Counted from the stretch's first letter, positions 6,720 to 34,528 are shown. The stretch is DNA of 64,000 nucleotides from an uncultured Lachnospiraceae bacterium (GCA_947165025.1 CAMUYQ010000003.1:54747-118746); one strand, 5' to 3'. Notes: generated by a model not told the origin, from the letters alone. Numbers and translations are program-made.

Positions 6720-6803
6720 GCAGAAATGGCGGAATTGGCAGACGCGCACGGTTCAGGTCCGTGTGAGGTAACACTCATGAGGGTTCAAGTCCCTTTTTCT
6801 GCA
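6720..6803 (+). tRNA. tRNA-Leu (anticodon CAG), long variable arm, no encoded CCA
   Basis: Hand-folded cloverleaf. Acceptor GCAGAAA/TTTCTGC; D-stem GCG/CGC with a GG loop; anticodon stem CACGG/CCGTG with loop TTCAGGT; 17-nt variable arm; T-arm GAGGG-TTCAAGT-CCCTT; discriminator A. Confidence 0.85.
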
Positions 6804-6804
6804 C
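6788..6804 (+). repeat. att core copy 1 (AGTCCCTTTTTCTGCAC), 3' end of tRNA-Leu
   Basis: The same 17-mer recurs at 34529-34545 and 46617-46633 (identical) and at 44761-44777 (one mismatch), all in direct orientation. Confidence 0.8.
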
Positions 6805-6924: not shown

Positions 6925-6982
6925 TTTCCCCCATCGATGGGGGAAAAAATGGGGGAAAAATTGGGGGAAAAATTGGGGGATA
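6925..6982 (+). repeat. GGGGGAAAA array (candidate arm-type recombinase sites), left end of segment 1
   Basis: Perfect palindrome TTTTCCCCC-ATCGAT-GGGGGAAAA, followed by three more GGGGGAAAA-like copies at a 12-bp period. A related array lies at 34455-34492. Confidence 0.5.
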
Positions 6983-6994
6983 AGACATGCTTCT

Positions 6995-7064
6995 TGCATT
7001 TCACGTCAAAAAAAGTGCGTTTCACGTATAATATATAATTATAAGTGGCAATCTTTCCGAAAAT
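6995..7064 (+). promoter_or_regulatory. Class-1 LytTR-type operator plus promoter of the RR/HK operon
   Basis: TGCATTTCACG (6995-7005) and TGCGTTTCACG (7016-7026), starting 21 bp apart. A TCCGAAAA box lies 42 bp after the proximal repeat; a TATAAT at 7027 is an alternative -10. Confidence 0.6.
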
Positions 7065-7099: not shown

Positions 7100-7852
7100 A
7101 TGGATCATAAAATGAAGATCGCCATATGCGATGATGAAAAGCCCATAAGGGACTATATAGAAAAATGCGTGCGTGAAGTAAAGGCAGATGTTGAAGTTGT
7201 TCAATATCCGGATGCTTCAGAAATGGTTGCGGCAAGTTTTGATGCAGATATACTATTCCTGGATATCCAGATGCCGGGTATGGACGGGATGAAAGCAGCT
7301 CGGATACTTCGGACTATGGGTAACAAAACTATCATAGTTTTTGTTACTGCTGTTGAGGAGTATGTATTCCAAGCGTTTGATGTTGGGGCGGTGCAATACA
7401 TAGTAAAGCCGTTTGACAGAAACAAACTTATAGATACGATCAAAAAGACGATAGCTCTTGCCGAAGAGAGAAACAGCATAGATGCTGCCCTTTCAGATAT
7501 GAATGAGTCAAATGAAGCTAAAAGATCTATAACGATCAAGTCTGATGGCGTTAACAGACGGGTTATATTGACGGAAATAATGTATGCTGAAGTGTTTGAA
7601 CATCGCATAATACTCCATATGAATGATAAGGAGTGTATTAACTATTACGGGAAGATGTCTGATCTTGAAATGGTTGCCGGAAAAGACTTTTATCGGGTGC
7701 ACCGGGCGTATCTGATCAATCTTGCGTATGTTAAGTCATATGATTCGAAGAGCGTTTCGATTTCAGGAGAGGAGATCCCCGTGGCTCGGGGAAAATATCA
7801 GGAACTTGTAAAAGCATACTTGTCATACTACACACGTAAGGAGCATTTATGA
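7100..7852 (+). CDS. LytTR-family response regulator (REC + LytTR DNA-binding domain)
   Basis: REC motifs ICDDE, FLDIQMPGMDG, VTA, VKPF; C-terminal LytTR signature FYRVHRAYLINLAYV. Confidence 0.9.
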   Translation: MDHKMKIAICDDEKPIRDYIEKCVREVKADVEVVQYPDASEMVAASFDADILFLDIQMPGMDGMKAARILRTMGNKTIIVFVTAVEEYVFQAFDVGAVQYIVKPFDRNKLIDTIKKTIALAEERNSIDAALSDMNESNEAKRSITIKSDGVNRRVILTEIMYAEVFEHRIILHMNDKECINYYGKMSDLEMVAGKDFYRVHRAYLINLAYVKSYDSKSVSISGEEIPVARGKYQELVKAYLSYYTRKEHL

Positions 7853-9255
7853 TCGACTATATTGTTGCCAATTTTGCGTCATTCGCTGATGCTTTTACTC
7901 ATTGTCTGGTAGTCATATATATAATCTGTGTGTCTTTTCTGTTATCAGTCTGGATAAAACCGTTTGTTCAAATCCGCAGGGCGTCATCTCTTACCGCGAT
8001 CATATATTTCATTTTCAGATTTATATACTATTTGATACCTGTAGATAGTGATTTTATCAGGGGGATTGCGTTTGGGATCATACCCGTAGTATTCCTTGTT
8101 TCATGGCTTTTGGATAATAAAAGGAATCCGGTCCAGAAACTGTTCCTTTCAATTCTCTATTATCTGATAAGCTGGCTGACATATGAGATTTCAGTGGAGA
8201 TCGGTCTTTTTGAAAGAGATATCATGTACAGATTTGAATGGTATCATTCGGATGCCAATGCCATTGCGATCGAGTTTATCATATGGAATTTGATCGAATA
8301 TGCTTTTGCGGTAGTTATTCTGTATATTTCAGTGCGCCTTATTCAGAAGGCATATATAAGAAAAATGGAAGAATTGTCATGGAAAGAACTGTTGATGCTG
8401 CTAGCCCCGTTCTGGACTATTCTTTTGGTAAAACCAATTATGTTGGCGTATTTCACTCTCTGGATGGATGGTATAGCAAATGGGAGTATAAATGAAAACA
8501 TACCGTCAAGCATTTATCGCCTGGTGTTCTGTGTTCTGTCGCTACTGTCTGTAATTATCATTATTACGCTGTATCAGAGGATCAAAGAGGCCACGGATGA
8601 TAAATATGCAAGACAGTCCCTTGAGAATCAGATCGAGGATATCCGGCGACATATGGGGCAGATAGAGGATATGTATGAAAAGATGAGAGCGATGCGGCAT
8701 GACATGGGCAATCATATGGCTGTGATAGAGGGCCTTGCAGATAAGGGAGAGAAGGATGCCCTGAGTGAGTATATCGGACAGTGGAAAAAGAATTATGATG
8801 AGTCAGGAACACTGGTTAAGACCGGAAATCCGATCATCGATGTTGCAATTTCGGAGTTTGCCGCAAGATTTAAAGAGTCTGACATACCGTTTGAACAGTC
8901 ATTTCAGTATCCCGAACAGCTTACGATCAATCCATTCGATCTGTGTGTTGTGGTAACAAATGCGCTTCAGAATGCATATGAAGCATCTGTAAACACGAAA
9001 ACACCCTCAGTATCACTGACATCTGTTGTCCGTGATCAAACGTTTATCATCAGTCTGAGAAACCATACAGACAACAAAGTGTATATAAATTTCGAAGAAG
9101 ATATACCGGTTTCGTCAAAAAAGGAAGACGGTCATGGGTACGGACTAAAGAATATAAGGACAATCGCCCGTAAGTACAAGGGTGATATCGAAATACGTCA
9201 AGAAGTTGAAAAAGACGGGTATATGTTTGTTCTGAACGTCATGTTTATTGGCTGA
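7849..9255 (+). CDS. AgrC/HPK10-like membrane sensor histidine kinase (GHKL)
   Basis: About six N-terminal hydrophobic helices; H-box MRHDMGNHM; N-box NALQNAYEA; G-box GHGYGLKNI; start overlaps the RR stop (ATGA). Confidence 0.85.
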   Translation: MIDYIVANFASFADAFTHCLVVIYIICVSFLLSVWIKPFVQIRRASSLTAIIYFIFRFIYYLIPVDSDFIRGIAFGIIPVVFLVSWLLDNKRNPVQKLFLSILYYLISWLTYEISVEIGLFERDIMYRFEWYHSDANAIAIEFIIWNLIEYAFAVVILYISVRLIQKAYIRKMEELSWKELLMLLAPFWTILLVKPIMLAYFTLWMDGIANGSINENIPSSIYRLVFCVLSLLSVIIIITLYQRIKEATDDKYARQSLENQIEDIRRHMGQIEDMYEKMRAMRHDMGNHMAVIEGLADKGEKDALSEYIGQWKKNYDESGTLVKTGNPIIDVAISEFAARFKESDIPFEQSFQYPEQLTINPFDLCVVVTNALQNAYEASVNTKTPSVSLTSVVRDQTFIISLRNHTDNKVYINFEEDIPVSSKKEDGHGYGLKNIRTIARKYKGDIEIRQEVEKDGYMFVLNVMFIG

Positions 9256-9257
9256 AC

Positions 9258-9327
9258 CGCAATTCACGACTGAAAAAGTGCGCTTCACGTCGAATCTATT
9301 GTTTATTTCTACAATTTCCCGATACTA
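9258..9327 (+). promoter_or_regulatory. Class-1 LytTR-type operator, copy 2, plus CCCGATAC box
   Basis: CGCAATTCACG (9258-9268) and TGCGCTTCACG (9279-9289), 21 bp apart; CGATA at 9320, 41 bp after the proximal repeat. Confidence 0.55.
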
Positions 9328-9360
9328 AAAGCATAATATGAAATGGTTTTTTCGCGTGGG

Positions 9361-9429
9361 TGCAATTCACGTCGAAAAAAGTGCATTTCAAGTAATGTGG
9401 GTTTATTTGATGCTGTCCTATTACGATAG
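9361..9429 (+). promoter_or_regulatory. Class-1 LytTR-type operator, copy 3, plus TACGATAG box
   Basis: TGCAATTCACG (9361-9371) and TGCATTTCAAG (9382-9392), 21 bp apart; CGATA at 9424, 42 bp after the proximal repeat. Confidence 0.55.
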
Positions 9430-9574
9430 AACGATTAGATACAGCATCAAATGTGTCAAGTTCGCAGAACTTGACATGTAGCGTCGGCTCTTCGACGAAG
9501 TCGAATCAGGATGAGCCGACGTTCTCGGGTTGCAAGGAAACGGATTTCATAAGAAGAACAGGAGGTTCAGGAAG
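9406..9574 (+). promoter_or_regulatory. Inverted repeat around the putative -10, plus a multi-hairpin GGA-rich 5' leader for the first cluster gene
   Basis: 11-bp inverted repeat TTTGATGCTGT/ACAGCATCAAA (9406-9416 / 9441-9451). Hairpin 9454-9476 (10 bp). Nested hairpin 9482-9521 with unpaired TCAGGAT. Further GGA motifs run up to the SD AGGAGG. Confidence 0.5.
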
Positions 9575-10351
9575 ATGTCAACAATAAGACAAACAGCAGG
9601 CAGTAATTATTTTGATGAGACCTATGGCGGAGGTAGTTCAGGCTATTCCAATGATTTTCTGTCAGGGTTAAGTGTAAATACCAACAGTAATGGCGGCGGT
9701 TCATTCGATCTGGCGGATTATGCCATGATCAAGAACGGATCATACGGCAAGCTTATGAAGGCGTACTACGGACAGGAAAAAGCACAGAAGGCCGTAGAAT
9801 CCAAGGAGAGCACTTCCAAGCTTACACAGATGGCCGGTAATGCCGGAGGAATGGCAAATGCAGCAAAAGCCCTGATGGATGATTCATTATGGCAGAAGAA
9901 GACCATAACGGAGAAGGACGAAAAGACCGGAGAGGAAACGACTAAAGAAGATTATGACTGGAAGGCCATCACAAAGGCTGTTAAGGGATTCATCGAAAAC
10001 TATAACAACACAGTGGCTGGTGCAGGTGAATCCGATACAAAGGGTGTGTTGAGGAATGCTTCCTTCATGGTCAAGACAACGGCGGCATACAAGAAAACAC
10101 TTGAAAAGGCCGGCATCACGATCACAAGCGGAAATAAGCTCGAACTTAACGAGGAAGACCTTAAGAATGCGGACATTTCAACGCTTAAGACACTGTTTAC
10201 GGGTTACAACTCTTTTGCCGACAAGATGGCGACAAAGGGTAACACGATAGCAAACGAAGCTGCAAGTGCCGGCGGAACATATACGAGCAATGGAACGTAT
10301 TCCAAAGCACTGTCACAGATAGTATCGACCAAGATCGATACCAAAGAATAA
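9575..10351 (+). CDS. Short FliD (flagellar cap, HAP2)-like protein
   Basis: Start at ATG 9575 behind SD AGGAGG (the track ORF starts at an upstream TTG). By eye, FIENYNNTV, SLWQKK, GVLRNAS and LEKAGITITSGNKLELNEEDLKNADISTLKTLFTG resemble the Firmicute FliD motifs FVDxYN, LWEEKAK, GLLRND and GITT...GKLxxDExKL...LF. No signal peptide. Confidence 0.45.
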   Translation: MSTIRQTAGSNYFDETYGGGSSGYSNDFLSGLSVNTNSNGGGSFDLADYAMIKNGSYGKLMKAYYGQEKAQKAVESKESTSKLTQMAGNAGGMANAAKALMDDSLWQKKTITEKDEKTGEETTKEDYDWKAITKAVKGFIENYNNTVAGAGESDTKGVLRNASFMVKTTAAYKKTLEKAGITITSGNKLELNEEDLKNADISTLKTLFTGYNSFADKMATKGNTIANEAASAGGTYTSNGTYSKALSQIVSTKIDTKE

Positions 10352-10396
10352 CAAGGATGTTAACGATAATCACGGAAGATTAAGGAGGATTAGACC

Positions 10397-11044
10397 ATGT
10401 CAATGAATGTAGGAACAGATTATACGAATTACAAAACCGGATACACTAACACAGAAAATCAGAAAAAGGATGTCGATATTTCCGAAAAGACTGCAGATCA
10501 GGGCAAGACTGCGTATGTCAAGGAAGGTGTTGTTTATGATAAGTCCGGAGAAAAAGTAGACAACTCAACATATTCGATCAATAAGATGAGCGCAACTGAC
10601 AGGGCTGCGATCGTCGATCAGCTGAAGGAAGATGCAAGGCAGAGGGAACAGCAGCTTGTAAGCATCGTGCACAGAACAATAGCTGATCAGGCCGGAGCAT
10701 ATGGAAAAGCTACCGGAAATGATATCTGGACACTCCTTTCTGGCGGAAAGGTTACTGTAACTGCAGCCGAAAAGGCACAGGCACAGAGAGATATCAGTGA
10801 AGACGGGTATTACGGTGTTAAGCAGACATCCCAGAGATTGTTTGACTTTGCCTGTGCGCTTGCCGGGGATGACGTGGATAAGATGAAAGAAATGCAGAAG
10901 GCCATGGAGAAGGGTTTCAAGCTTGCTACAAAATCATGGGGTAAGGAACTTCCGGGCATATGCGGAGAAACATTTGATGCGGCTAACAAACTGTTTGAGG
11001 AATATTACAGGTCAAAAGATCCTGGAGCAGCATTGTCAGAATAG
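10397..11044 (+). CDS. Hypothetical protein (cluster gene 2)
   Basis: SD AAGGAGGA 6 nt upstream; conserved-looking C-terminal helical segment GYYGVKQTSQRLFDFACALAGDD...EKGFKLATKSWGKELPGI; no TM helix or signal peptide. Confidence 0.7.
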   Translation: MSMNVGTDYTNYKTGYTNTENQKKDVDISEKTADQGKTAYVKEGVVYDKSGEKVDNSTYSINKMSATDRAAIVDQLKEDARQREQQLVSIVHRTIADQAGAYGKATGNDIWTLLSGGKVTVTAAEKAQAQRDISEDGYYGVKQTSQRLFDFACALAGDDVDKMKEMQKAMEKGFKLATKSWGKELPGICGETFDAANKLFEEYYRSKDPGAALSE

Positions 11045-11148
11045 GTGGCGTAAAGTTTTCATAGAAAACTTTGCGGCACGTTGGCCACGACTTCCACGCA
11101 GTGGAATTGTTATGTCGTGGCTCTCAAGAGTAGGAGAGGACTAAAGCC

Positions 11149-11736
11149 ATGAACATAACCATGAAAGGTGCCGGCCTTCTCGGAATGGGTAATCCCGGTC
11201 TTAAAAGTACACAGGACCGTCTGGACAGAATGGTCAAAAGGGATAATAAAATAGCGTTCTTTGAGCAGCAGAAAGAGAATCTGAAGACTATGAAGACGGA
11301 TTCGCTTGAAGATATCTCAAGAAAACTGGAAATGCTTCATGGTTATGATGATCAGATCGCGCTTGCAAAGGTTGAGTTCAATAACAGTCAGGTTTTCCAT
11401 ATGCTTGATGAAGCAAGGGAACTTGGCGAGAAGATTGCTGAAGCAGCCGAGAAGAATGCTCCTAAGACTCCAGAAGAAAGACGCGAGGATATGATCGAGG
11501 AGGTTACAGGAGTAGATATGGACGGTGGAATACTTGGAGAAGTGATGGACGAACTCGAGGATATCACGGAAGAGATGACGGAGAAAGCCGCGGAAGAGCT
11601 TGAAGAAATGACAGAGGAGACTCTTTCGGAGCAGGATCTGAAACAGGCATTGTATCAGGAACCTTTAAGCACTGAGGATCCTGTGGAAGATGATCTGTTG
11701 CAGGATAAGTATAAACGGATCGATTACCGGGTATAG
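11149..11736 (+). CDS. Hypothetical acidic coiled-coil-like protein (cluster gene 3)
   Basis: Complete ORF with SD GGAGAGGA; E/D-rich C-terminal half; structured upstream intergenic region (hairpins within 11050-11130). Confidence 0.65.
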   Translation: MNITMKGAGLLGMGNPGLKSTQDRLDRMVKRDNKIAFFEQQKENLKTMKTDSLEDISRKLEMLHGYDDQIALAKVEFNNSQVFHMLDEARELGEKIAEAAEKNAPKTPEERREDMIEEVTGVDMDGGILGEVMDELEDITEEMTEKAAEELEEMTEETLSEQDLKQALYQEPLSTEDPVEDDLLQDKYKRIDYRV

Positions 11737-11778
11737 GAAACGGATTTCCTATCATAATAGTCAAAGGAGGACGAAATC

Positions 11779-12327
11779 ATGGCATTATCAGGTATCATGA
11801 CAACATCGCTGTTGTCGGCAAATAATTCAATGAAGATCGCAAGAGTACAACAGGGCGCCAAGAACCAGATGGACGGACACGCCGGTGTGCTTGATGCAGA
11901 GATAAAGCTAGACAGCGCCCGGGGCGGGGATGTTAAGAAAAAACAGGAAGAGCTTGAGGAGACAAAGAAAAAGGCTTCCGAACTTGAAGAATCCACTATG
12001 AATACGCTTTCGGCTACATCCGATGATCTGAAGAAGGCGGCTAAAGACGATCTTGAAGCCAGAAGGGCAGAGAAGGCTGAAGAGAAGAAGAAAGCCGAAA
12101 AAGCAGCAGAGAAAAAGAGGGTGGAGAAGAAGGCTACCGAAGAGAGGATCGAGAAGATCGGAGAAGCAGCAACATCTGAAACCGCAGAGATATCTGATGG
12201 TGATCATAGTGTATCGGTAGAGGGAACATTGTTTGAAGGCGCCACGATCAATGTCGTTGTTGACGGTGTAACTCCAAGCACAGGCGCAACCGGAACAATA
12301 GGCGTATCGATGGACGAAAAAGCCTGA
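11779..12327 (+). CDS. Hypothetical K/E-rich protein with weak flagellin-N-terminus-like start (cluster gene 4)
   Basis: SD AAGGAGGA. N-terminus SLLSANNSMKIARVQQG...DGHAGVLDAEIK loosely recalls flagellin LSANN...DDAAGLAISEKM; the rest is K/E-rich low complexity. Confidence 0.6.
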   Translation: MALSGIMTTSLLSANNSMKIARVQQGAKNQMDGHAGVLDAEIKLDSARGGDVKKKQEELEETKKKASELEESTMNTLSATSDDLKKAAKDDLEARRAEKAEEKKKAEKAAEKKRVEKKATEERIEKIGEAATSETAEISDGDHSVSVEGTLFEGATINVVVDGVTPSTGATGTIGVSMDEKA

Positions 12328-12341
12328 CAGAGGGTTATAAT

Positions 12342-12923
12342 ATGAAAATCACGGGATCATACAATCAATATGAGCTGAATAATATGGAATCAACAGGCAG
12401 TAAGCCCAAGGCAGAAAAGGAATACGCCAACTATCTGATGAAGAAGTATCCGTGCCTGTCTCCAGGAAAGAATTCTGTTGTATCTGTAACAAGTGGATTA
12501 TTGCGTAAAGCCATGTCCGATGAGAAGACCGGTGAGTGGCTTGAGAGAGAATTATCAAAGGCTCCCGATTATATCAAACAGGCTCAACAGTCTGCGATTG
12601 CCCATGGTTCAACCCTGAAGTTCTGTTCTATAGAGTTCGGAGAGGAGTATTCCACGATGTGTACGCTTACTGTAACAGACGGCGGAGGAACTGATCCGGA
12701 CATTGATGAATGGCTTGAGAAGGTTAAGAAGGAAAGGGCTGAGCGAAAAGCCGAGGAAAAGAAACAGGAAGAAGAACGCGCAGAGGTTCGCCGACAGGAA
12801 ACAGAAACATATAAGATGGAACTAAAGGGCAGGGATCTTGAAGATCTGACAAGACAGTTCGCCATGAATCTGACAACACAAGCCTCAACGCTTTCGAACG
12901 GTTCAATTGATATAAAAGCGTGA
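12342..12923 (+). CDS. Hypothetical protein, member of an in-cluster paralogue family (cluster gene 5)
   Basis: Shares the pattern VS[VIL][ST]xxG...M..D.....W ... [IF]xFGE with the products of 16684-17607 and 17619-18254. Confidence 0.65.
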   Translation: MKITGSYNQYELNNMESTGSKPKAEKEYANYLMKKYPCLSPGKNSVVSVTSGLLRKAMSDEKTGEWLERELSKAPDYIKQAQQSAIAHGSTLKFCSIEFGEEYSTMCTLTVTDGGGTDPDIDEWLEKVKKERAERKAEEKKQEEERAEVRRQETETYKMELKGRDLEDLTRQFAMNLTTQASTLSNGSIDIKA

Positions 12924-12934
12924 TCATTTCAATG

Positions 12935-13035
12935 TAAACAATTATCTTCAAAATGCCGATATATATTTAAGATAAGTGATAATGTCGCCTGATCAGAAAA
13001 GGAGTTCGGATCAGTATTGTCAAGGAGGATGACAC
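12935..13035 (+). promoter_or_regulatory. Sigma-D/sigma-28-type promoter plus hag-like leader (GGA hairpin + GGA-containing SD)
   Basis: TAAA (12935-12938), 16-nt spacer, GCCGATAT (12955-12962). Hairpin 12989-13014 presents AAGGAG in its loop. SD AAGGAGGA at 13023-13030. Confidence 0.6.
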
Positions 13036-13689
13036 ATGAGCGGGATAAATGCGGTTAATAACGGTAAATCCGGTGAATTTCTACAGGGAATTCAGACGAC
13101 AATAAAGGAAAAACTGAATAATGCTATTGAAGAAGGAGCATTCTCCAACGCATTTGATGAAGGAGTAGCTGCAACCCTTTCAATATCGTCATCCGGGATC
13201 GCTCAGGCTAGTCGGGCAGAAAGAGAAGATATCATTCGACAATCTATAGTCCAGCTGGATGGCGGGTATAGAAAGTTTAATCTTACAGATGAAGAAGCCT
13301 GTATTCTCAAGAGTTTCCGGTTGGAAGAATACTATGATATCCGGAATAGAATGAAGAATGAGGATATTAACGCCTATAATGATCTTTTAAAGTCTGAAGA
13401 GATCGCCGACAAGAACTCCGACCCGAGCGCAAAGTTTAAAGTATATTCAAAAGCATATAACTGGGCTTACGGGGACGTTTTTGACAGAATCCATAAGGAA
13501 AATCCGGAAGTTGATATTTATGTAAGATCACCGGGGACGGAGGAAAATCATAACTATCAAATGAGAAATAACAGAACCTCACTTATTATTTCCACGGATG
13601 AAATAAAACTCCTTCAGTCAAGAAATAACAACGATAAGAAAGCACAGGAAGAACTGTGGAATAGGATCCTGGAAAAGATCCGATCATGA
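13036..13689 (+). CDS. Hypothetical protein (cluster gene 6)
   Basis: Complete 217-aa ORF with a strong SD; no recognisable motif. Confidence 0.65.
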   Translation: MSGINAVNNGKSGEFLQGIQTTIKEKLNNAIEEGAFSNAFDEGVAATLSISSSGIAQASRAEREDIIRQSIVQLDGGYRKFNLTDEEACILKSFRLEEYYDIRNRMKNEDINAYNDLLKSEEIADKNSDPSAKFKVYSKAYNWAYGDVFDRIHKENPEVDIYVRSPGTEENHNYQMRNNRTSLIISTDEIKLLQSRNNNDKKAQEELWNRILEKIRS

Positions 13690-13707
13690 GTTTGATGAAA
13701 TGACAAG

Positions 13708-13787
13708 TCGGGATATATTAAAGGAAAGCATTAATATCGCTTGATCCGAAAAGGAGTTCGGATTCATATGATCAAGGAGGATATCAC
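13708..13787 (+). promoter_or_regulatory. Second copy of the hag-like leader (GGA hexaloop hairpin + SD)
   Basis: Hairpin ATCCGAA-AAGGAG-TTCGGAT (13744-13763). SD AAGGAGGA at 13774-13781. A degenerate TCGGGATAT box at 13708 has no convincing -35. Confidence 0.5.
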
Positions 13788-14756
13788 ATGAAGGTCAATA
13801 ACACATCCTTTTTTATGAATGATGGCGTATTTGGAACATCGAATACATCGGAGCGTTCAAACAATAATCCATCCAAATCATCCGGAATATCGATAAACGG
13901 CAGTTCTTTTGCCATGCAGAATGATCCCATTGCGGCCAAGCGGGAGGAAGCCCGTAAGAAAGCAATGAAGGTCATCGGGGATGCGTTTGCTAATGACCGG
14001 AAGATTGATGAAGACCTTGATGCAAGAAGCGAGCATATCCGAAAGCTGAAAACTGTTCAGAATGACGCAAATAAAGTGATCAACGAAATAGAATCAGACC
14101 GTGCTGCTCTTCGAGATGAGTATGGTATTGATACGGACAGTCAGGAAGAGAAAGATCTCCAGCTTCTTGAGAAGGAATTCAGGGCACGCCAAAAAGGTTC
14201 TGATGTTCAACTTACAAAGGAGGATATGGAGGAGATCGCTAAGATTAAGGCAAAGGGCCTTACGGAATATCAGAGCAGGTCGATGGAAATGCTTGATTAT
14301 GAGAAACCATATCTTGATGCAGCATATGAGGCTAAAGCCGGTATAGAAGAGGAAAATCTAACCATTGCAGCAATAAAGCGTGAACTTCCGAAGAATGACG
14401 CAATGTTGAAAGCCCAGGATAAAGCCGATGCCATAGAAGATGCTGCATCAAAAGAGATCATGGGGATGCTTGTCGATGAAGCGAAGGAACAAATCGACGA
14501 AGAGGCAAAGGAGGCCGAAGAAAAGGCCAAGGAGAAACAGGAGAAGGAAGAAGAACTCCAGGAGAAGATCGATGCCGCAAGGGAAAGACGTAAGGAAGAG
14601 GAAGAACTCACTGAAGACATCGTGGAATCTGCCCAGGATCTTAATGTTACAACAGCTAACATAAATGATGCACAGAAGGACATTAAGGATATGATGAACA
14701 AACTGGCACTCGTAGAAGAAGATATGAAGGGTGCCGCTGTGGATCAAAAATCATAA
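13788..14756 (+). CDS. Hypothetical coiled-coil-like protein (cluster gene 7)
   Basis: S/N-rich N-terminus, then a long K/E/D-rich helical-looking region; 322 aa. Confidence 0.65.
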   Translation: MKVNNTSFFMNDGVFGTSNTSERSNNNPSKSSGISINGSSFAMQNDPIAAKREEARKKAMKVIGDAFANDRKIDEDLDARSEHIRKLKTVQNDANKVINEIESDRAALRDEYGIDTDSQEEKDLQLLEKEFRARQKGSDVQLTKEDMEEIAKIKAKGLTEYQSRSMEMLDYEKPYLDAAYEAKAGIEEENLTIAAIKRELPKNDAMLKAQDKADAIEDAASKEIMGMLVDEAKEQIDEEAKEAEEKAKEKQEKEEELQEKIDAARERRKEEEELTEDIVESAQDLNVTTANINDAQKDIKDMMNKLALVEEDMKGAAVDQKS

Positions 14757-14793
14757 AGCATATTGATTGGTACTACCATTCAATATAGATCGG

Positions 14794-14824
14794 TCGGGTC
14801 ACGGAAAACGTGGCCCGATTTTTT
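14794..14824 (+). terminator. Intrinsic terminator ending the first transcription block of the cluster
   Basis: 10-bp stem TCGGGTCACG/CGTGGCCCGA (one G-U pair), loop GAAAA, followed by TTTTTT. Confidence 0.7.
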
Positions 14825-14829
14825 GTTTA

Positions 14830-15010
14830 TAGTCGTTTTATGTCATATGATAGTCGATTTTTGAAATATATATAAATATGGGATTAAATTGGTCGATAGA
14901 TATTTCAGATGATTTATTTCTATAAGTGTATAAAGAATTTGCTAAGGAAAGCACCCCAGAGGATCCATGGAGAGGATCGTAATTATAATGAGGTGCTTTT
15001 ACTTTTTTAA
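14830..15010 (+). promoter_or_regulatory. Regulatory cassette: class-2 LytTR-type operator + TAAA-N15-GTCGATAG promoter + GGA leader with terminator-like hairpin
   Basis: TAGTCGTTTTA (14830) and TAGTCGATTT (14851), 21 bp apart. TAAA at 14873-14876 and GTCGATAG at 14892-14899. GCTAAGGAAAGC at 14941. Hairpin AAAGCACC/GGTGCTTT (14948-14999) followed by a T-run. Confidence 0.55.
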
Positions 15011-15056
15011 CAGGGGGAGTAGTAAGCCGGCAAGGGGAAACCGGAAGAAAAAACTT

Positions 15057-15764
15057 ATGAAAATTTGGATCTGTGACGGAGAGAAAAGTGATATTGATGA
15101 GTTGAAGAGCCTTATCGATTGTTACAAAAAGAAAAAAGATATAGGGAATGTTGAAGTAAGAGTGTTTGGTGATGCTGCTGAACTTATACAGGAAATGATT
15201 GACGGTGATGCTGCAGATATTATTATTTTAGATGCAATGATAGCGGAAAATGGAACTGAGGATCTTCTTAAAAAAATACGAACTAGGAATTCAGATTCAA
15301 AAGTCATTCTGCTTATTTCGGAAATGAGACATGTACTTGACGGATATCAGATGAAAACAGATTGGATTCTTTTGAAAGAAAACCCCTCTGACAGATTTTT
15401 TGAATGTATGGATAGGCTGTGTTCAGACATCCGGGAGAAACGAAAAATCCTTTCCTTGTCGTGTGTAGAGGGAGATTATGTTTTCAGCCGATCGAAAATA
15501 CTGTTTATAGAGAGTGAAGGTCATCGCTGTACAATTCATGAATTGAATGGAGATTATCACATATACCGTCGCCTGGATGAACTCGAAGAGAGAATAGATT
15601 CGCCGTATTTTATACGAATTCATCAAAGCTATCTAGTCAATGTCAAATACATACAACGTATAAGCAATTACGAACTAACAATGGCAGACGGTTGTATCTT
15701 GCCAGTATCTAAGGCGAGATATAAACAGGTTCAGCGTGAATACGCAGAAAATAAAATGAATTGA
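15057..15764 (+). CDS. Orphan LytTR-family regulator with a divergent receiver-like N-terminal domain
   Basis: C-terminal LytTR signature FIRIHQSYLVNVKYI. The N-terminal REC-like fold has ICDGE in place of the DD/DE pocket, and IIILDAMI. Start moved to ATG 15057 because the track start 14967 lies inside the leader hairpin. Confidence 0.75.
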   Translation: MKIWICDGEKSDIDELKSLIDCYKKKKDIGNVEVRVFGDAAELIQEMIDGDAADIIILDAMIAENGTEDLLKKIRTRNSDSKVILLISEMRHVLDGYQMKTDWILLKENPSDRFFECMDRLCSDIREKRKILSLSCVEGDYVFSRSKILFIESEGHRCTIHELNGDYHIYRRLDELEERIDSPYFIRIHQSYLVNVKYIQRISNYELTMADGCILPVSKARYKQVQREYAENKMN

Positions 15765-15766
15765 TA

Positions 15767-15910
15767 TAGTCGTTTTATGCATTATATGATCGATTCAGGA
15801 CATTCCTATAATATGAATTGCGAAATGTGCCGATAACTATATCAGATAATTGTATAAGCTAAGGATAGCAGCTGTGGTCAAAGGAATGAACTTTGATGAC
15901 AGTCTTTTTT
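15767..15910 (+). promoter_or_regulatory. Regulatory cassette, copy 2 (class-2 operator, GCCGATAA box, GGA leader, terminator-like hairpin)
   Basis: TAGTCGTTTTA at 15767 and TGATCGATTCA at 15787. GCCGATAA at 15829-15836. GCTA-AGGA-TAGC at 15858-15869. Hairpin 15872-15902 with GGA at its apex, then TCTTTTTT. Confidence 0.55.
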
Positions 15911-15926
15911 ATAAGTGGGGGGTAGT

Positions 15927-16502
15927 ATGAACATTTTTTTTGAGAAACCTGAAGAACAGAAGATAACCAGCCAAAGGGAGCTGGTGGAGCATTTACTCAA
16001 TAATTCCGGTGATGTTGATGAGATGTCGGAGGAAAATCGCAGAGAGATGGACGCCCGGATAATGGCAAAGCTTAAATCCGGAAAAAAGCTTTCGCAAAAG
16101 GAACTGGATTATCTTAGGAGAACAAACCCCATACTTTATGCTCAGGCAATGAGAGTACAGAGAATGGCGGAGGCGCTCGAAGAACAGCTTAAGCATGCGA
16201 GAAGCAAGGAGGAAGTTAACCAGATCTTTACTACTGCGTTGTCCGGTATATCCAAGAATGATCCTGACCGTGAATACCTTGTGGCTTCTTTCAATCGTAT
16301 TTCTACAGAGTTTCGCAAATCTAAAATGTATAATAAGCTGCTGACCACCACTGAGGAAGCAAGGAAGAAAAAGAAACAGGTAGATCCGGATAAGGATCTG
16401 TTTAAGGAAGATAATGATGACAAAGACGGGTTTGATCTGAGCAGTTGGAGTCCTTTACGTGAGTTGTATGAACAGATGCCATCTTTTGTGGCCGGAGCGT
16501 GA
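15927..16502 (+). CDS. Hypothetical helical protein (cluster gene 9)
   Basis: ATG 15927 behind a GGGGGG SD (the track ORF starts at an upstream GTG inside the SD); K/E-rich, no motif recognised. Confidence 0.65.
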   Translation: MNIFFEKPEEQKITSQRELVEHLLNNSGDVDEMSEENRREMDARIMAKLKSGKKLSQKELDYLRRTNPILYAQAMRVQRMAEALEEQLKHARSKEEVNQIFTTALSGISKNDPDREYLVASFNRISTEFRKSKMYNKLLTTTEEARKKKKQVDPDKDLFKEDNDDKDGFDLSSWSPLRELYEQMPSFVAGA

Positions 16503-16518
16503 CGATTCTTTGCTATTC

Positions 16519-16660
16519 TTGATGATTTATATGGACGATAGTCGTTTCATGGCATTTATATAATACAGACTTATAACATGTCGATAATAGTATCAGACAA
16601 CTGAATAAGCAAGGGATTGCGGCTGTGTTCAAAGGATTGAATTTTGGAGACAGTTTTTTT
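16519..16660 (+). promoter_or_regulatory. Regulatory cassette, copy 3
   Basis: Half-sites TTGATGATTTA (16519, degenerate) and TAGTCGTTTCA (16539). GTCGATAA at 16580-16587. GCAA-GGGA-TTGC at 16609-16620, which covaries with GCTA...TAGC. Hairpin 16623-16653 followed by TTTTTTT. Confidence 0.55.
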
Positions 16661-16683
16661 ATACGAAATAAGGGGGATTAAGT

Positions 16684-17607
16684 ATGACAGGAACAGCAGT
16701 AGCATCATGTTTCAATTACAGCAGTTACGCAAGTTATCAGACTTCAAGTAAGAAGACGGGTGAGGTATTGTTTTCCGATAGTATTGATGTCAATAGTGAC
16801 AAGGTGAAAAAAGAGGAGTCCCAGAGGGGATCTGTTATGGAGGAATACTATGCAAGAAAGCCTCAGTACAAAGAAAGGGCAAAAGAACGAGTTGATGGCG
16901 GTTATGTTGTTCTAAAGTGTGCCGGGATTTCCACCGAGGACATGGAGAACATGTCCATGAATGAGTTTAAAGATGTGATGAGCAAGGTTATTGCCGGGAT
17001 TCCGCATCATGCCACAAGACCATATGATGAAGAAACGGTACTTATTTCCGAAGAAGGTTGGGAAAACATGAAGAAGGATCCTGATTATGCAGCATATGTG
17101 GTGGGTCTGCTTCAGGAAGACAGATCCTTTGCAAATCCGTTCTTTGCGCTGGGGGATAAAGGAAGTTATATTGTGCAGCATTTTGGCGCATCTCCGGAGG
17201 ACTATCATGGAGTCGGATTTAGCAAGATATACGGTGGTACTGCTGCGGGAGCACGTTCGATGTATAACTCGGCGAAGGCAGGAGGAATTGAGACGCGTGG
17301 CCCACAGGCGGATCTTCAGCCTCCGTCAGACTATAATCTTTGGGAAGAGAGAAGAAAAGCAAAGAGGCGTAAAAGAAAAGAGCAGCTTGATGAAGAAATC
17401 ATGTCTCAATATTATCAGAAGAAGCATTTGAACGATCTGTATGAAAAGAAACTTTACGAGAACAAGGAACTTGCACGATCTCGCAGTGTGGCTGAAATGA
17501 TAGGATCACGGAGCAATACATCACATGCGCCGAAGCTTTCTATGGCAAGCGGTACGGCGTTTTATGAAGCGGCGTTTATGACATCTGATATAACTGAAAT
17601 GTTTTAG
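16684..17607 (+). CDS. Hypothetical protein, paralogue family member (cluster gene 10)
   Basis: LISEEGWENMKKDPDYAAYVV ... IVQHFGASPED aligns by eye with the next gene and with 12342-12923; basic KRRKRK segment near the C-terminus. Confidence 0.65.
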   Translation: MTGTAVASCFNYSSYASYQTSSKKTGEVLFSDSIDVNSDKVKKEESQRGSVMEEYYARKPQYKERAKERVDGGYVVLKCAGISTEDMENMSMNEFKDVMSKVIAGIPHHATRPYDEETVLISEEGWENMKKDPDYAAYVVGLLQEDRSFANPFFALGDKGSYIVQHFGASPEDYHGVGFSKIYGGTAAGARSMYNSAKAGGIETRGPQADLQPPSDYNLWEERRKAKRRKRKEQLDEEIMSQYYQKKHLNDLYEKKLYENKELARSRSVAEMIGSRSNTSHAPKLSMASGTAFYEAAFMTSDITEMF

Positions 17608-17618
17608 GAGCATCTTGT

Positions 17619-18254
17619 ATGAACAATATGATCACAATCAGCAGTATGAGTCGCGCATTCCGACAGACACCGGTTCGCAGACCAAGTAAAAATGATGTAA
17701 GAGGAGCATCATTTGCGGACTGCGTTCAAAAAGAAGCGGATAAACAGAACATTCCGAATAACGAAACTATGCGTAGTGTAGACGAATATCGGACATACCT
17801 GAACGATAAGCTTCAGAATCTCTCATTTGATTCATCAAACAGAATGGACACCACGATGGTATCCTTATCGGATGCTGGTATTAATCGTATGATGAAGGAT
17901 CCCGAATATGAGAAATGGGTTATCTGTCAGGTTAGTTCCATGATTTCAACAGATGATCCGTTCAGCGGTATGGCAGGCGGAAAGTTTATCATAATGCGCT
18001 TTGGAGAGAGAGAATCAGATCTTAGTGTAACAATAGAGAGAGCCGGTTTTTCAAACGGACAGGACAGTATGATGCCAAAGACTCATAAAGATGAAGATGA
18101 GAATTTCTGGAACAGACGGCAAAACCGGCTTGAAGAGCAGATTGATGTAAGTGAGGAGATTCGTGAAAGAGAAGCGGAAGGTCTTTCAATAATGATCAAT
18201 CCGTTTTTGGATATAAGCGGGAAAAAAGCCATTGAGGGTAATACCGCCAACTGA
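17619..18254 (+). CDS. Hypothetical protein, paralogue family member (cluster gene 11)
   Basis: SLSDAGINRMMKDPEYEKWVI ... IIMRFGERESD; starts 11 nt after the upstream stop codon. Confidence 0.65.
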   Translation: MNNMITISSMSRAFRQTPVRRPSKNDVRGASFADCVQKEADKQNIPNNETMRSVDEYRTYLNDKLQNLSFDSSNRMDTTMVSLSDAGINRMMKDPEYEKWVICQVSSMISTDDPFSGMAGGKFIIMRFGERESDLSVTIERAGFSNGQDSMMPKTHKDEDENFWNRRQNRLEEQIDVSEEIREREAEGLSIMINPFLDISGKKAIEGNTAN

Positions 18255-18256
18255 AA

Positions 18257-18403
18257 TAGTCGTTTTATGTCATATTATAGTCAGTTTATGCAGAGGGTGT
18301 TTAGTGGTTATACAGACACGACGATAAAACTTTCAGATCAATATAAGAGCTAAGGATAGCGGCTGTGTTCAAAGGAGTGAACCTTGATCACGGTCGTTTT
18401 TTT
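18257..18403 (+). promoter_or_regulatory. Regulatory cassette, copy 4
   Basis: TAGTCGTTTTA (18257) and TAGTCAGTTTA (18278), 21 bp apart. GACGATAA at 18320-18327. GCTAAGGATAGC at 18349-18360. Imperfect hairpin 18359-18395 followed by TTTTTTT. Confidence 0.55.
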
Positions 18404-18488
18404 GTAATCAAAAATAAGATACCGCTCGGACCTTTCCGGAGAGCGGTGCGGCTCTGACTGACAGATGAGTCGCGGAAAGGGGGACAAT

Positions 18489-20678
18489 ATGTCATTTGCA
18501 GTACAAACAAGTTTTAATCAAACGTATCAGTATGGGAGCTTTGGCTCTAAATCTAATCGTGGAGAGGATTCTATAGGAAGAGAATTCATGGGAAGCGCTA
18601 CTTCACGAACCACTTCATCTGATAAGGGTGAAAATATCGGCGTTATGACGATTGGTAACATAGGGTATATTGCCAAATATGCGGACTCATCGACAGAAGA
18701 AGATCCTATCATCAAAGTCGGAGATTATGAGGTCAGGGTAAATGATGTTGATCCGCATAATGCTACTAAGGTAGAGATGTTTGCGCTGATGAGCTATATG
18801 GATGATAAAGGTCTCATCGAGAACACCGGCATGAAATCATTTGGAAAAATGACAGCGTATGGGGCACAGGCGGAATATAACGGATTTTGTAGTGATCTAT
18901 CCGATCCTGAGCTGGCATGGACAAAGAACAGAGACTGGACAGCGATACTGCAAAACGCAAAAGAAACATTTTTTGGTATTCCGCAGGCATATAATCAAGG
19001 GCTTAACTGCGAGAACATTGTTGCCGGACTTGAGCGTTGGGCAGAGACAAGGTGTGATAAAGGCGAGAATATAATTACAGAGGTATCCGGTGAGAGTGAA
19101 GTGTCAAGTGATATGGATGCCACATGTATTCCGGTTGTCGGCAAAGGATATGGCGATCCGGCCGCATACACCAGGTGTATTACAGCTAATATCAAGACCA
19201 AGGAAGCCTATGTACAGCAGAATTCCAACGGAGAAGTGATTTATTCGTACAGGGAGACGGAGCAGTCATTCAATATCATCATCAATTCTGACGGTAAGGA
19301 TAAAACATACACGATAACCGGTATTGACGAAAACGGCGAGGAGTTTGAAAGAGCGTTTGATCCATATGATCTGGATCCTAAAGATATGGATTATCCCGAG
19401 TTCGCTGCGATGTGCATGTACATCAGACAGACGGATGAAACAGCTGATCTGATAGCTAGCAGCTATTTTACGGATACAAGCTATTTCGACGGGATATTTG
19501 ACAGAGGTGATCGTGTCAGCCTGCTGGGACAGTATGCTGAAGAGTATGGTAATTCTGAGCCGTCCCTTGCAAGCCTTGCGAATAAGATATTTGAAGCTAT
19601 AAGTACATTTTTCGACAGAGCAATGAGGGGAAACGGATTCTCTGAAGAAGCATTCTCACTCCTGTTTGCGGACCTTGATGATATCGAGACGCAGGAAAAG
19701 ATCAGTGCGCTCAAAAACGGATATACCTATTCTGACAACACAACCGATCCGGTATCCGAAACAATTGTTTCAAAACACAATCAGTACACGGATCCTGATA
19801 CCGGTGAGATTGTTCCGGTGAATATCAGATATATCACAGCCTATACTGATGAGGGGATCTCCTGTAAGGAAATAAAAGATGAAGGGGGAAAAATATCACA
19901 GAGAGATTTATGGAGTCTATCTTATGATTCTCCGGACAGTTATGAAAAGGTTCAGGAGTTCTTAAAGAGTTTTTCGAAGGATCAGAATCTTACATTTGCT
20001 CCACAGGAGAAGTTTTGGAAGGATTTCATGAAGGATGATTTTGATATTGACGGATTCCGTGCATATTACGATTCCACCGATAACGGAAAGATAAATGTAG
20101 AGAAGGGATTACAGGAGGGCAAGAATCTGGGAGATCTCTTGACCGAGCCTTTTGCCGAATATATCAACAACACTCATTTTATCGGCAAGGTATTTACGGA
20201 GCAGGAAATGTGGGATAACTGGAATGCCCAAATAGAAGCAAACCAGAGGACTTTGGGCTTAAACTGTACAGGAGATATAGCATCCACAGATTCCAGGGAT
20301 AAGGTCCGTGAAATGAGAGAACAGGCATTTTTGGGGATTGGAAAGAATGCTTCGGAGAACGTAAAAAAAGCCTGGCTGGAGGCTGCAGATGAAATTGGAA
20401 TGGACGGACAGGGATTATCGGCTACCGGAACACTTGATCATATCCCGCAGTTTATGATACAGCGATTTATCCGCCAGTATAACGGATATGATCCGGATGA
20501 TGTTCTGGGGAGTACGGTAAGCTCGGCCATCCAGGCGGCTCAGGACGCTATTTATGCTCTTGACCATCCTCTCGAGCCTGATACAACAAGGAGTTCGAAA
20601 GTACTTGCGGCGAGGGAGAAAGAGAGAGCTTTCTATGAGCGTTTTATAGAAAAACTCATGGGAATGAGAGCGCTCTAA
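18489..20678 (+). CDS. Large hypothetical protein (729 aa from ATG 18489; cluster gene 12)
   Basis: ATG 18489 behind SD AAAGGGGGA (the track ORF starts 24 nt upstream); no TM helix, signal peptide or catalytic motif recognised. Confidence 0.65.
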   Translation: MSFAVQTSFNQTYQYGSFGSKSNRGEDSIGREFMGSATSRTTSSDKGENIGVMTIGNIGYIAKYADSSTEEDPIIKVGDYEVRVNDVDPHNATKVEMFALMSYMDDKGLIENTGMKSFGKMTAYGAQAEYNGFCSDLSDPELAWTKNRDWTAILQNAKETFFGIPQAYNQGLNCENIVAGLERWAETRCDKGENIITEVSGESEVSSDMDATCIPVVGKGYGDPAAYTRCITANIKTKEAYVQQNSNGEVIYSYRETEQSFNIIINSDGKDKTYTITGIDENGEEFERAFDPYDLDPKDMDYPEFAAMCMYIRQTDETADLIASSYFTDTSYFDGIFDRGDRVSLLGQYAEEYGNSEPSLASLANKIFEAISTFFDRAMRGNGFSEEAFSLLFADLDDIETQEKISALKNGYTYSDNTTDPVSETIVSKHNQYTDPDTGEIVPVNIRYITAYTDEGISCKEIKDEGGKISQRDLWSLSYDSPDSYEKVQEFLKSFSKDQNLTFAPQEKFWKDFMKDDFDIDGFRAYYDSTDNGKINVEKGLQEGKNLGDLLTEPFAEYINNTHFIGKVFTEQEMWDNWNAQIEANQRTLGLNCTGDIASTDSRDKVREMREQAFLGIGKNASENVKKAWLEAADEIGMDGQGLSATGTLDHIPQFMIQRFIRQYNGYDPDDVLGSTVSSAIQAAQDAIYALDHPLEPDTTRSSKVLAAREKERAFYERFIEKLMGMRAL

Positions 20679-20684
20679 AACTTC

Positions 20685-20766
20685 GCCAATATATTCAAGT
20701 CGAAATTTAATAAGAGTTATGGAAAGTGGCTGTGTTCAAAGGATTGAACTTTGGACACAGCTTTTT
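20685..20766 (+). promoter_or_regulatory. Partial regulatory cassette, copy 5 (GCCAATAT box, GGA-apex terminator-like hairpin)
   Basis: GCCAATAT at 20685-20692 with no TAAA at the proper spacing and no clear LytTR repeats. Hairpin GCTGTGTTCAAAGG/CTTTGGACACAGC (20729-20761) followed by TTTTT. Confidence 0.4.
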
Positions 20767-20821
20767 CGTACCAAACAAAGCATAAACAGACAGGAAAACA
20801 AGGACTGGAGGGTAGTGATTA

Positions 20822-22135
20822 ATGAAAATTGCAGACAGTACAGTAAACATGATGTCGGGGAGAAACTATACTCAGACCGGGATGAAGAACGGGGTGGCCG
20901 GTTATGAAAGCAGCTTCACGGGAATGATCAACAGATATAACACCCATAGGGATAATGCTCTTGCAAAGGACACTTATCAATCCGGCAAGGATAATGGTGG
21001 GATGGGTTCTTACAATATGGATGATATCGGGTATTTCAAGGGACTCGGAAAAATCACATCTGGAAGCCTATTTGGAGCGGGAGCAGGTGCGTCAGCTTTT
21101 CAAAACAACACTCTGGCCGCGATGTTTAAGAGATTCGCATCTTTTGGAATGATAGGCGGCGCGGCTATTGGCGGATACTCCTCGAGTATGGTCACGTATT
21201 CCGAAACCGAAGAGACAGGGTTTCATGCGTGCGGTAAGGCATGTACAGAGGACGGCCGGACGATCGATTTTAATGTAAATATCCTGATGAGCAGGAGCTA
21301 TATGGAATATATGAACGTAAGGATCCCGACTATGGCTGATGCCCTGTTTGATCCGCTTATTGTCAATATAGGATCTGATACAGCGGATGTGCGGGATCAG
21401 ACTTTTAAGTTTGATCTTGATGCCGACGGGTGTGAGGATGAAATATCCATGCTTGGTAAGTGCTCGGGATTTCTTGCTTTGGATAAAGACGGAAACGGAA
21501 AAATCGATGACGGCAATGAATTGTTCGGAACAAAGAGCGGTGACGGATTCGGTGAGCTTCGGGAATATGACAGTGATGGTAATGGATGGATCGATGAGAA
21601 CGACGAGATATTCTCAAAACTTAAGGTATGGTGCAAGGATGAGAACGGTAATGACGTACTCATGGATCTGAAGGAGGCAGACATCGGAGCTATATATCTG
21701 GGAGAACAGCGGACGGAGTTTACACTTGGCGGGGCAGACGGTTACAGAGACGGAGTGATCAGATCCACAGGGGTATTTCTTCGCGAGAGTGGAGGCGCAG
21801 GTACAATACAGCATGTGGACTTGTCCATGAAACAAAACGGTCTGGGTACAAAGGTCAGCGGTGATGATACAGTTATGGATGTAAGTACATCCGACAACCG
21901 AAATCAGAGCAATGCCACCAGGAGACAGGAAGAAAGACGGCGGCAGGAAGCAAAGGCAAGAAGGAGAAAAGCTGATGATAAGGCAGCTGCGGATGCCATG
22001 TACAGAAGACAGATGGAAAATAGGAAATACATGAATAAGCTTCAGGAGAGGCGATTTATGGAGAGAAAGGAATACCATGAGGAACTGAGCGAGGAGCAGA
22101 TGGAGAAACTGCTTGAAGATCAGGAAGCAGTATAA
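20822..22135 (+). CDS. Hypothetical protein with EF-hand-like DxDxDG calcium-binding repeats and a basic C-terminal tail (cluster gene 13)
   Basis: DLDADGCEDEI, LDKDGNGKIDDGNELFG, YDSDGNGWIDENDEIF, CKDENGNDVL; C-terminal RRQEERRRQEAKARRRK; no signal peptide. Confidence 0.7.
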   Translation: MKIADSTVNMMSGRNYTQTGMKNGVAGYESSFTGMINRYNTHRDNALAKDTYQSGKDNGGMGSYNMDDIGYFKGLGKITSGSLFGAGAGASAFQNNTLAAMFKRFASFGMIGGAAIGGYSSSMVTYSETEETGFHACGKACTEDGRTIDFNVNILMSRSYMEYMNVRIPTMADALFDPLIVNIGSDTADVRDQTFKFDLDADGCEDEISMLGKCSGFLALDKDGNGKIDDGNELFGTKSGDGFGELREYDSDGNGWIDENDEIFSKLKVWCKDENGNDVLMDLKEADIGAIYLGEQRTEFTLGGADGYRDGVIRSTGVFLRESGGAGTIQHVDLSMKQNGLGTKVSGDDTVMDVSTSDNRNQSNATRRQEERRRQEAKARRRKADDKAAADAMYRRQMENRKYMNKLQERRFMERKEYHEELSEEQMEKLLEDQEAV

Positions 22136-34492: not shown

Positions 34493-34528
34493 GTTCATAA
34501 ACGTTGAAAAACCGTACCCAGAGGTTTC

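Follow-up and report, generated by a model that had tools for sequence, protein, structure and literature searches.

Response regulators with a LytTR DNA-binding domain that activate promoters of the sigma-A type include ComE, PlnC/D, BlpR and FsrA, while AlgR, also of the LytTR type, acts at the AlgU-dependent algD promoter of Pseudomonas aeruginosa, AlgU being a sigma factor of the sigma-E type and the AlgR sites lying far upstream with no fixed proximal tandem repeat. AgrA recognizes a word of 9-13 bp that is repeated after a 12-13 bp spacer just upstream of the -35 element, and in the classical sigma-A LytTR promoters the repeats are likewise found just upstream of the -35 region (PMC5600425). 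Promoters of sigma-28, the sigma factor of flagella, are usually seen as governed by way of this factor and its anti-sigma factor, and activator-dependent cases are very few. In Bacillus subtilis the promoter of the equivalent factor, SigD, reads TAAA-N15-GCCGATAT. In Escherichia coli, CRP centred at -49.5 activates the sigma-28 promoters of aer and trg (Hollands et al. 2010, PMC2859248), and the authors of that work stressed the rarity of activator-dependent sigma-28 promoters (PMC2859248). The Lachnospiraceae include motile gut species with pro-inflammatory flagellins, fliA has been reported for motile members of the family, and the flagellin promoter of Butyrivibrio fibrisolvens provides a sigma-28 reference with -35 TAAA and -10 MCGATAa (PMC3720852). 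Here we analyse a 64,000-nt stretch of DNA (the window) from an uncultured Lachnospiraceae bacterium (GCA_947165025.1, CAMUYQ010000003.1:54747-118746), in which two LytTR response regulator genes, RR1 and RR2, and several neighbouring genes are preceded by direct repeats at a fixed distance from a CGATA box resembling the -10 element of sigma-28 promoters.

Seven promoters in the window carry two direct repeats 20-21 bp apart, with one copy degenerate in two of the seven (Table 1). The repeats fall into two unrelated classes, each preceding its own regulator gene, and they adjoin the two LytTR response regulator genes. The class-1 word, GTGCRNTTCACGT, is doubled with a 21-bp period only at 6994/7015, 9257/9278 and 9360/9381. 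The geometry is that of LytTR sites, in which two direct repeats, each about 9-13 bp long, are separated by 12-13 bp (20-22 bp period), and next to the sites a receiver-LytTR regulator (RR1) is found with a HATPase_c_5 kinase; LytTR-regulated promoters adjoin the gene of such a regulator, usually together with an HPK10-type kinase. An earlier note on this DNA had reported that the proximal repeat starts 41-44 bp before the start of the CGATA box (CGAAA at the RR1 promoter) in seven promoters; every coordinate and distance proved correct, the spacing being found in 7/7. The same note had described an operator-free promoter of textbook form, TAAA-N16-GCCGATAT, which is exact and has no second match in the window. 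With 200 occurrences of CGATA over 128,000 strand positions, there is a chance of about 0.006 that one starts in a given 4-nt interval; the chance that 6/7 sites have it there is about 4e-13, a figure inflated by paralogy, though two unrelated repeat classes share the spacing.

Paralogy could in principle account for the spacing altogether, if a recent promoter duplication had copied repeat and box together, and the class-2 promoters with boxes at 15831, 16582 and 18322 are indeed paralogues with 78-79% identity downstream of the box. We find such an artefact of chance or paralogy hardly credible: these paralogues do not share the sequence that separates repeat and box, the spacing is common to two unrelated repeat classes and to about 15 repeat words in other genomes, and in metagenomes CGAWA was present at 43-45 nt in only 3/128 of the class-2 pattern matches listed (at least 128 matches in at least 120 contigs, mostly from unrelated environments, which serve as a rough negative control).

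The same arrangement was found in other Lachnospiraceae. With the family of the protein encoded at 16684, 49 loci were fetched from Lachnospiraceae genomes, Pseudobutyrivibrio isolates included, and six further loci came from protein look-ups, giving 55 related loci in total (designated by L numbers). In these loci at least 15 different repeat words share one phase, in which the TTC core of the proximal repeat precedes CGA[A/T]A by 36-37 nt. The words include GTGCRGTTCAY (L005, L007, L008), GACCATTCRTG (L006, L009, L011), ACAWTTCGTAAC (L020, L021, L025) and, in Pseudobutyrivibrio, ATGCKGTTCACA (L014, L016), with several others elsewhere; in the later-fetched loci L054 and L055 the distance from TTC to box was again 37 nt. 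When 32 promoters representing about 15 repeat-word families were aligned on CGA, the half-site cores came into sharp register (TTC: -37..-35, -58..-56; C: -30, -51), and the consensus of the box was G-n-C-G-A-(T/A)-A, with the G two bases upstream present in 60% of families and position 4 being T or A; the promoters in this alignment had been selected on CGA, so its invariance there is by selection. Two unbiased tests were anchored on the repeats. With the half-site as anchor (55 loci plus the window), CGA[A/T]A stood at offset 36-37 from the proximal TTC in 19 of 53 unique sites, the other 45 offsets holding seven in all, and about 0.5 are expected per three offsets. Among 85 unique intergenic repeat pairs of 21-bp period, CGAWA was found 36-48 nt after the proximal repeat in 21, and in this interval CGATA was the top pentamer after poly-A. 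The repeat with its spaced CGAWA box is a family-wide promoter design and not a local quirk.

The earlier note took the CGATA box for a -10 element of the sigma-28 type, and the box's match to the Lachnospiraceae reference, its slot and its fixed distance from the repeats all support that assignment. The box matches the published MCGATAa as well as the flagellin promoter of L049 (TAAA-N16-TCCGATAC), and it has the sigma-28 -10 form GCCGATAA/T with a CGA core, CGA being independently enriched in the unbiased tests. Relatives of the regulated genes that have no repeats (L047, L048, L050) are preceded by complete sigma-28 promoters, TAAA-N15/16-GnCGAWA, and the strict pattern TAAA-N15/16-nnCGAWA is present in 7 of 46 upstream regions of family members vs 0.9% of control windows (about 17-fold). 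An A located 13 nt after the C of CGA is 77% conserved and is also found at the repeat-free promoter at 12935, which has A-G-A at +13..+15 in common with the composite promoters; transcription could plausibly start at this A. In the same genomes, some LytTR sites have a sigma-A-type hexamer (TATACT, TGTTATATT or TGGTAAAAAT) in the slot of the box, 37-38 nt after TTC. Such sites often precede regulator or kinase operons, and some of the hexamers have an upstream TG (11655 and 13906 in L016, 3923 in L012, 6086-6310 in L055, and 6814 on the minus strand in L020). Since this slot also takes sigma-A-type hexamers, the box is a -10 element that can be exchanged and does not belong to the regulator's site, and since both kinds of hexamer accompany LytTR repeats, a single genome has the two types of promoter with one activator geometry.

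The shared slot can also be read in favour of ordinary sigma-A promoters, whose poor -10 hexamers (GATAAN or GAAAAT) the LytTR activator would render functional, as happens at agr P3; the conserved CG just upstream would then be incidental or act as a local discriminator. Rescue of weak sigma-A promoters is a classical role of LytTR activators (PMC5600425), the box lies where sister promoters have their sigma-A hexamers, and GATAAT at 16583, GAAAAT at 7059 and GATACT at 9321 retain the A of position 2 and the T of position 6. We nevertheless consider this explanation unlikely, because C and G are invariant, most boxes (GATAGA, GATAAC, GATAAA) lack the T of the sixth hexamer position, a G two bases before the C and a TAAA 15-16 bp upstream are recurrent, and the repeat-free, hence activator-free, relatives combine this box with a complete TAAA -35. 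The region shows no enrichment of sigma-70-type sites, with 29 found vs 35.6 expected.

If the boxes are not read by sigma-A, the factor in question might still be a different alternative sigma factor that prefers a -10 of sigma-28-like or CGA type and has its gene elsewhere in the genome, for example a second FliA paralogue. A SigI-type factor, with -10 CGWA, is a further candidate. Many boxes are CGAAA and also fit CGWA, the -35 is often absent, and the cassette is mobile and found in island-like contexts. Such a factor is improbable in our judgement, given that no sigma-factor gene was detected in the 27.7-kb element that carries the locus (described below) or within 10 kb in the 49 related loci (tblastn, E <=1e-4), that most boxes are CGATA, which does not fit CGWA, and that the -35, where present, is (C)TAAA at 15-16 bp, the sigma-28 signature. 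The SigI-like reading was rejected, as it fits the CGAAA subset only.

The box might, finally, be no promoter element at all, and mark instead the site of a further DNA-binding protein or the 5' end of a leader RNA, the true promoter being elsewhere. The alignment of the paralogous 82-nt leaders does start at the box, and a TYAGA motif follows it. Yet the distance from the box to the GGA of the leader varies between loci from about 16 to 32 nt, whereas that from box to repeat is fixed within 1 bp; the box is also present at class-1 promoters, whose leader is unrelated, as well as before a flagellin gene; and no alternative -10 is consistently placed. A non-promoter role is on these grounds very unlikely.

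As in the classical sigma-A LytTR promoters, the proximal half-site ends close to the -35 slot, about 6-7 bp upstream of it. The earlier note had stated that most of the promoters lack TAAA, and had suggested that the LytTR activator replaces -35 recognition. The statement is literally right, since exact TAAA among the seven is found only at 14873-14876, in RR2's own promoter, but TAAT is present at canonical spacing at 7036, 15809 and 16561, so that TAAA or TAAT is found in 4/7. The boxes at 9320, 9424 and 18322, like most class-1-type promoters, have no TAAA-like -35 at 15-16 bp, but the suggestion goes too far in view of the 4/7 that keep TAAA or TAAT and of two whole families elsewhere (L006/L009/L011 and L020/L021/L025) with TAAA 15-16 bp upstream throughout. 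Because the half-site lies beside the -35 slot and TAAA or TAAT is often retained, the activator seems to add to -35 recognition or to make up for a weak -35, not always replacing it. One activator position for promoters of both sigma-A and sigma-28 type suggests that the activator touches a polymerase component which the two share. A conserved GTTT(A/G) motif about 20-23 nt before CGA in class-1-type promoters was considered as a -35 candidate and rejected, as it gives no match to the second half of the E. coli sigma-28 -35 at the right spacing.

We propose, with a probability of roughly 0.6, that these are composite promoters requiring both a LytTR regulator and sigma-28. A regulator dimer would bind the two direct repeats of 21-bp period from about -77 to -42 (start taken at the conserved A 13 nt past the C of CGA), just upstream of the -35 slot, and GnCGA(T/A)A would be the -10 element. 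RR1 with its kinase would serve the class-1 sites, its own operon included, and RR2 the class-2 sites, its own gene included. Expression would then need two inputs, active sigma-28 (the late flagellar checkpoint) and a two-component signal, in the manner of an AND gate. Where TAAA is kept, as in RR2's own promoter, some basal sigma-28 transcription is to be expected, and where it is lost, dependence on the activator would be complete.

Several points weigh against this proposal. No fliA, flgM or flagellar gene was found in the 64-kb window, and membership of the flagellar regulon is weakly founded on family labels, most regulated genes having no assignable function. Several boxes are CGAAA, CGATT or CGATG instead of CGATA, and the three hexamers with G first at 16583, 7059 and 9321 could pass as weak sigma-A -10 elements. 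The CGA-anchored alignment is, as said, of promoters selected on CGA, and only the two repeat-anchored tests are unbiased. Two promoters also allow alternative sigma-A readings, TCTACA-18-CATAAT at 9308-9337 and TTGAAA-18-TAAATT at 14861-14890. Sigma-A readings of single promoters were discounted, since their phase differs from one promoter to the next.

The conserved class-2 leader has A(A/U)GGA, a long hairpin with an invariant GGA in its apical loop, and a U-run, and it is also found in L001-L011, L016, L047, L048 and L050. Folding was more stable than expected in 12/12 copies (z -3.2 to -6.2). In a trimmed 16-copy alignment with a hand-specified hairpin, 86% of cells pair, compared with 31-48% for a slid partner, and compensatory changes are seen in 8 of 16 pairs; RNAalifold predicted no structure on the ungapped alignment. 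The leader has no Rfam match, and an Rfam search of the window gave tRNA only, whether run at the gathering threshold or with E values up to 5. Of the copies in the window, the fourth (20716-20768) lies between two genes and has no promoter. This leader may be a CsrA-type attenuator. Two other leaders of about 79 nt (12961-13039 and 13713-13791, 80% identical), the first following the textbook sigma-28 promoter, expose GGA in the loop of a hairpin and have AAGGAGG as their Shine-Dalgarno site, with unremarkable folding energies (z -1.4 and -0.9). By sequence alone these are candidate CsrA leaders, having at least two GGA, of which one is in a hairpin loop and another coincides with the Shine-Dalgarno site or is close to it. 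The 150-nt leader at 9436-9580, after the 9424 promoter, forms two strong hairpins (-48 kcal/mol, z -4.0) and is unrelated to the class-2 leader.

The links of the regulated genes to the flagellum come from protein families. The first class-1 gene product (9575), weakly similar to FliD_C, belongs to a family of more than 1000 proteins, and most of the best-scoring 120 have a precomputed FliD_C match. The 16684, 17619 and 12342 proteins share a DUF6033-type domain, a domain for which no mention was found in the literature. In L054 (5952-10753) and L055 (1468-11648) a LytTR regulator and HATPase_c_5 kinase are found together with DUF6033 paralogues, a FlxA-like protein and a short FliD_C protein; this cassette, recurring in the window at 7100-12923, has island-like surroundings with Abi_2, Fic and methylase genes. 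Flagellin genes are present within 10 kb in L026 and L049. For the remaining regulated products, searches of NCBIfam, PHROGs and PDB sequences detected no family or fold. An AlphaFold model of the 16684 family (pLDDT 71.6) gave no PDB fold match, exact-sequence look-ups of two window proteins returned no matches, and the distant stand-alone homologues in L050 and L052 have no conserved gene neighbourhood. No family assignment points to another export route, signal peptides not having been searched. By eye, several regulated products have N-termini rich in serine, threonine, asparagine and glycine, and the protein encoded at 20822-22135 has repeated acidic DxDxDG-like motifs at about residues 195-275 (window 21400-21650), reminiscent of calcium-binding loops, for which no Pfam domain was found. 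A broader picture, which we offer as speculation and think unlikely, is that of a horizontally mobile, flagellum-coupled accessory system of Lachnospiraceae, with a LytTR and late-sigma AND gate, a post-transcriptional check at the GGA-loop leader (possibly bound by CsrA), and products (FliD_C-like, FlxA-like, DUF6033 paralogues and large proteins without assignment) that would either leave the cell by the flagellar type III apparatus or be built onto it.

The LytTR locus, with all genes on the plus strand, starts directly 3' of a tRNA-Leu gene (6720-6804). The 23-nt 3' end of this gene (6782-6804) recurs with two mismatches at 34523-34545, about 27.7 kb downstream, and the whole locus therefore lies inside an integrated element. 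In addition to the mobility genes in Table 1, this element carries Schlafen/AlbA_2, HNH-like and endonuclease genes, and it is probably an integrative mobilizable element. The receiver domain of RR2 is under the Pfam cut-off (21 vs 30 bits), with DG replacing DD at the acidic pocket. RR2 has no adjoining kinase, and none of its own in the window; its relatives in L002-L004 do have one. The probable start of RR2 is 15057, because the first ATG (14967) falls inside the leader hairpin. Between the tRNA gene and the RR1 promoter, a 12-nt unit, TGGGGGAAAAAn, is present four times in tandem (6938-6983).

Table 1. Promoter elements, genes and leader RNAs of the LytTR locus and its element (window coordinates)
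Feature	Position	Strand	Remarks
Class-1 repeat pair TTGCATTTCACGT / GTGCGTTTCACGT	6994-7027	+	Copies 6994/7015, 21-bp period; promoter of RR1-kinase operon
-10-like box TCCGAAAA	7056-7063	+	CGAAA start 7058; TAAT 7036-7039, N16 spacing
Class-1 repeats and box CCCGATAC	9257-9325	+	Repeats 9257-9269 and 9278-9290; box 9318-9325, CGATA start 9320
Class-1 repeats and box TACGATAG	9360-9429	+	Repeats 9360-9372 and 9381-9393; box 9422-9429, CGATA start 9424; structured 150-nt leader follows
Repeat-free canonical sigma-28 promoter TAAA-N16-GCCGATAT	12935-12962	+	
Class-2 repeats ATAGTCGTTTTATG / ATAGTCGATTTTTG and box GTCGATAG	14829-14899	+	Repeats 14829/14850; box 14892-14899, CGATA start 14894; TAAA 14873-14876 (N15); RR2's own promoter
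Class-2 repeats and box GCCGATAA	15766-15836	+	Repeats 15766/15786, 20-bp period, proximal copy degenerate; box 15829-15836, CGATA start 15831; TAAT 15809-15812 (N16)
Class-2 repeat and box GTCGATAA	16517-16587	+	Repeat 16538, degenerate distal copy 16517; box 16580-16587, CGATA start 16582; TAAT 16561-16564 (N15)
Class-2 repeats and box GACGATAA	18256-18327	+	Repeats 18256/18277; box 18320-18327, CGATA start 18322; no TAAA-like -35
RR1, response regulator (receiver and LytTR domains)	7100-7852	+	Response_reg 5e-22, LytTR 1e-13
Membrane histidine kinase (HATPase_c_5 / GHKL, SPOB_a)	7849-9255	+	Family including AgrC and ComD
Five-gene operon	9575-12923	+	FliD_C-like (9575-10351), three unknown genes, DUF6033 protein (12342-12923)
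Three unknown genes of the five-gene operon	Starts 10397, 11149, 11779	+	
Two genes with similar leaders	13036-13689 and 13788-14756	+	Region 12961-14756
RR2, orphan LytTR regulator	15057-15764	+	Weak receiver domain; open reading frame opens at 14967
Class-2 regulated genes	15915-22135	+	15915, 16684, 17619, 18465 (737 aa), 20822 (437 aa)
Conserved leader hairpin	15858-15912	+	GGA apical loop, AAGGA upstream, U-run; copies 16609-16663, 18349-18405, 20716-20768; variant 14935-15012
Relaxase	22232-24625	-	In 27.7-kb element
ParM-like gene	25429		In 27.7-kb element
Integrase	27137-28270		In 27.7-kb element

If the proposal is true, a whole bacterial family gates sigma-28 transcription by response regulators, the sigma-A and sigma-28 holoenzymes share an activator geometry that points to a common contact, e.g., the alpha C-terminal domain, and a testable regulon of mobile, flagellum-linked Lachnospiraceae genes without known function is at hand. 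Experiments are feasible because cultured Pseudobutyrivibrio strains (L012, L016) carry the same design. The earlier note knew of no description of this combination; we likewise found no report in the literature linking LytTR regulators to sigma-28 promoters, but activator-dependent sigma-28 promoters as such are known from CRP at aer and trg of E. coli (PMC2859248). The activator at a sigma-28 promoter is thus not new, and the LytTR version appears to be.

Compared with described systems, the leaders and the regulator each have a partial counterpart. In B. subtilis, CsrA-FliW controls the leader of hag, the flagellin gene. Like the hag leader, the 12961 and 13713 leaders have one GGA in a hairpin loop and one at the Shine-Dalgarno sequence, and the class-2 leaders have two GGA; unlike it, the class-2 leaders have a U-run after the hairpin, which is placed a good distance upstream of the Shine-Dalgarno sequence, as in an attenuator. 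With AlgR at algD the present system would share the use of a LytTR regulator with an alternative sigma factor, and it differs in its fixed proximal tandem repeats and its sigma-28-type -10. Canonical sigma-28/SigD promoters such as that of B. fibrisolvens flagellin (PMC3720852) have the same -10 core, upstream G and, where present, TAAA spacing, but most of the composite promoters have an activator site in place of an exact -35. As with AgrA at agr P2/P3, two imperfect direct repeats about 12 bp apart stand immediately upstream of the -35 (PMC5600425), a receiver-LytTR protein is paired with a HATPase_c_5-type kinase, and the regulator operon is apparently autoregulated. The -10 is GnCGAWA and not TATAAT as at AgrA promoters, the -35, where present, is TAAA at 15-16 bp, and the targets are flagellum-linked genes without known function in place of the toxins, bacteriocins or competence genes of the LytTR sigma-A systems. 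As with CRP at aer and trg, a DNA-bound activator would be placed just upstream of the -35, and under the start proposed here the proximal LytTR half-site would be centred at about -49, a parallel to the -49.5 of CRP that is suggestive only. The E. coli case was shown in vitro, in another phylum and with a CRP dimer on a palindrome, whereas the present one is deduced from sequence and would have a LytTR regulator on tandem repeats reaching to about -77.

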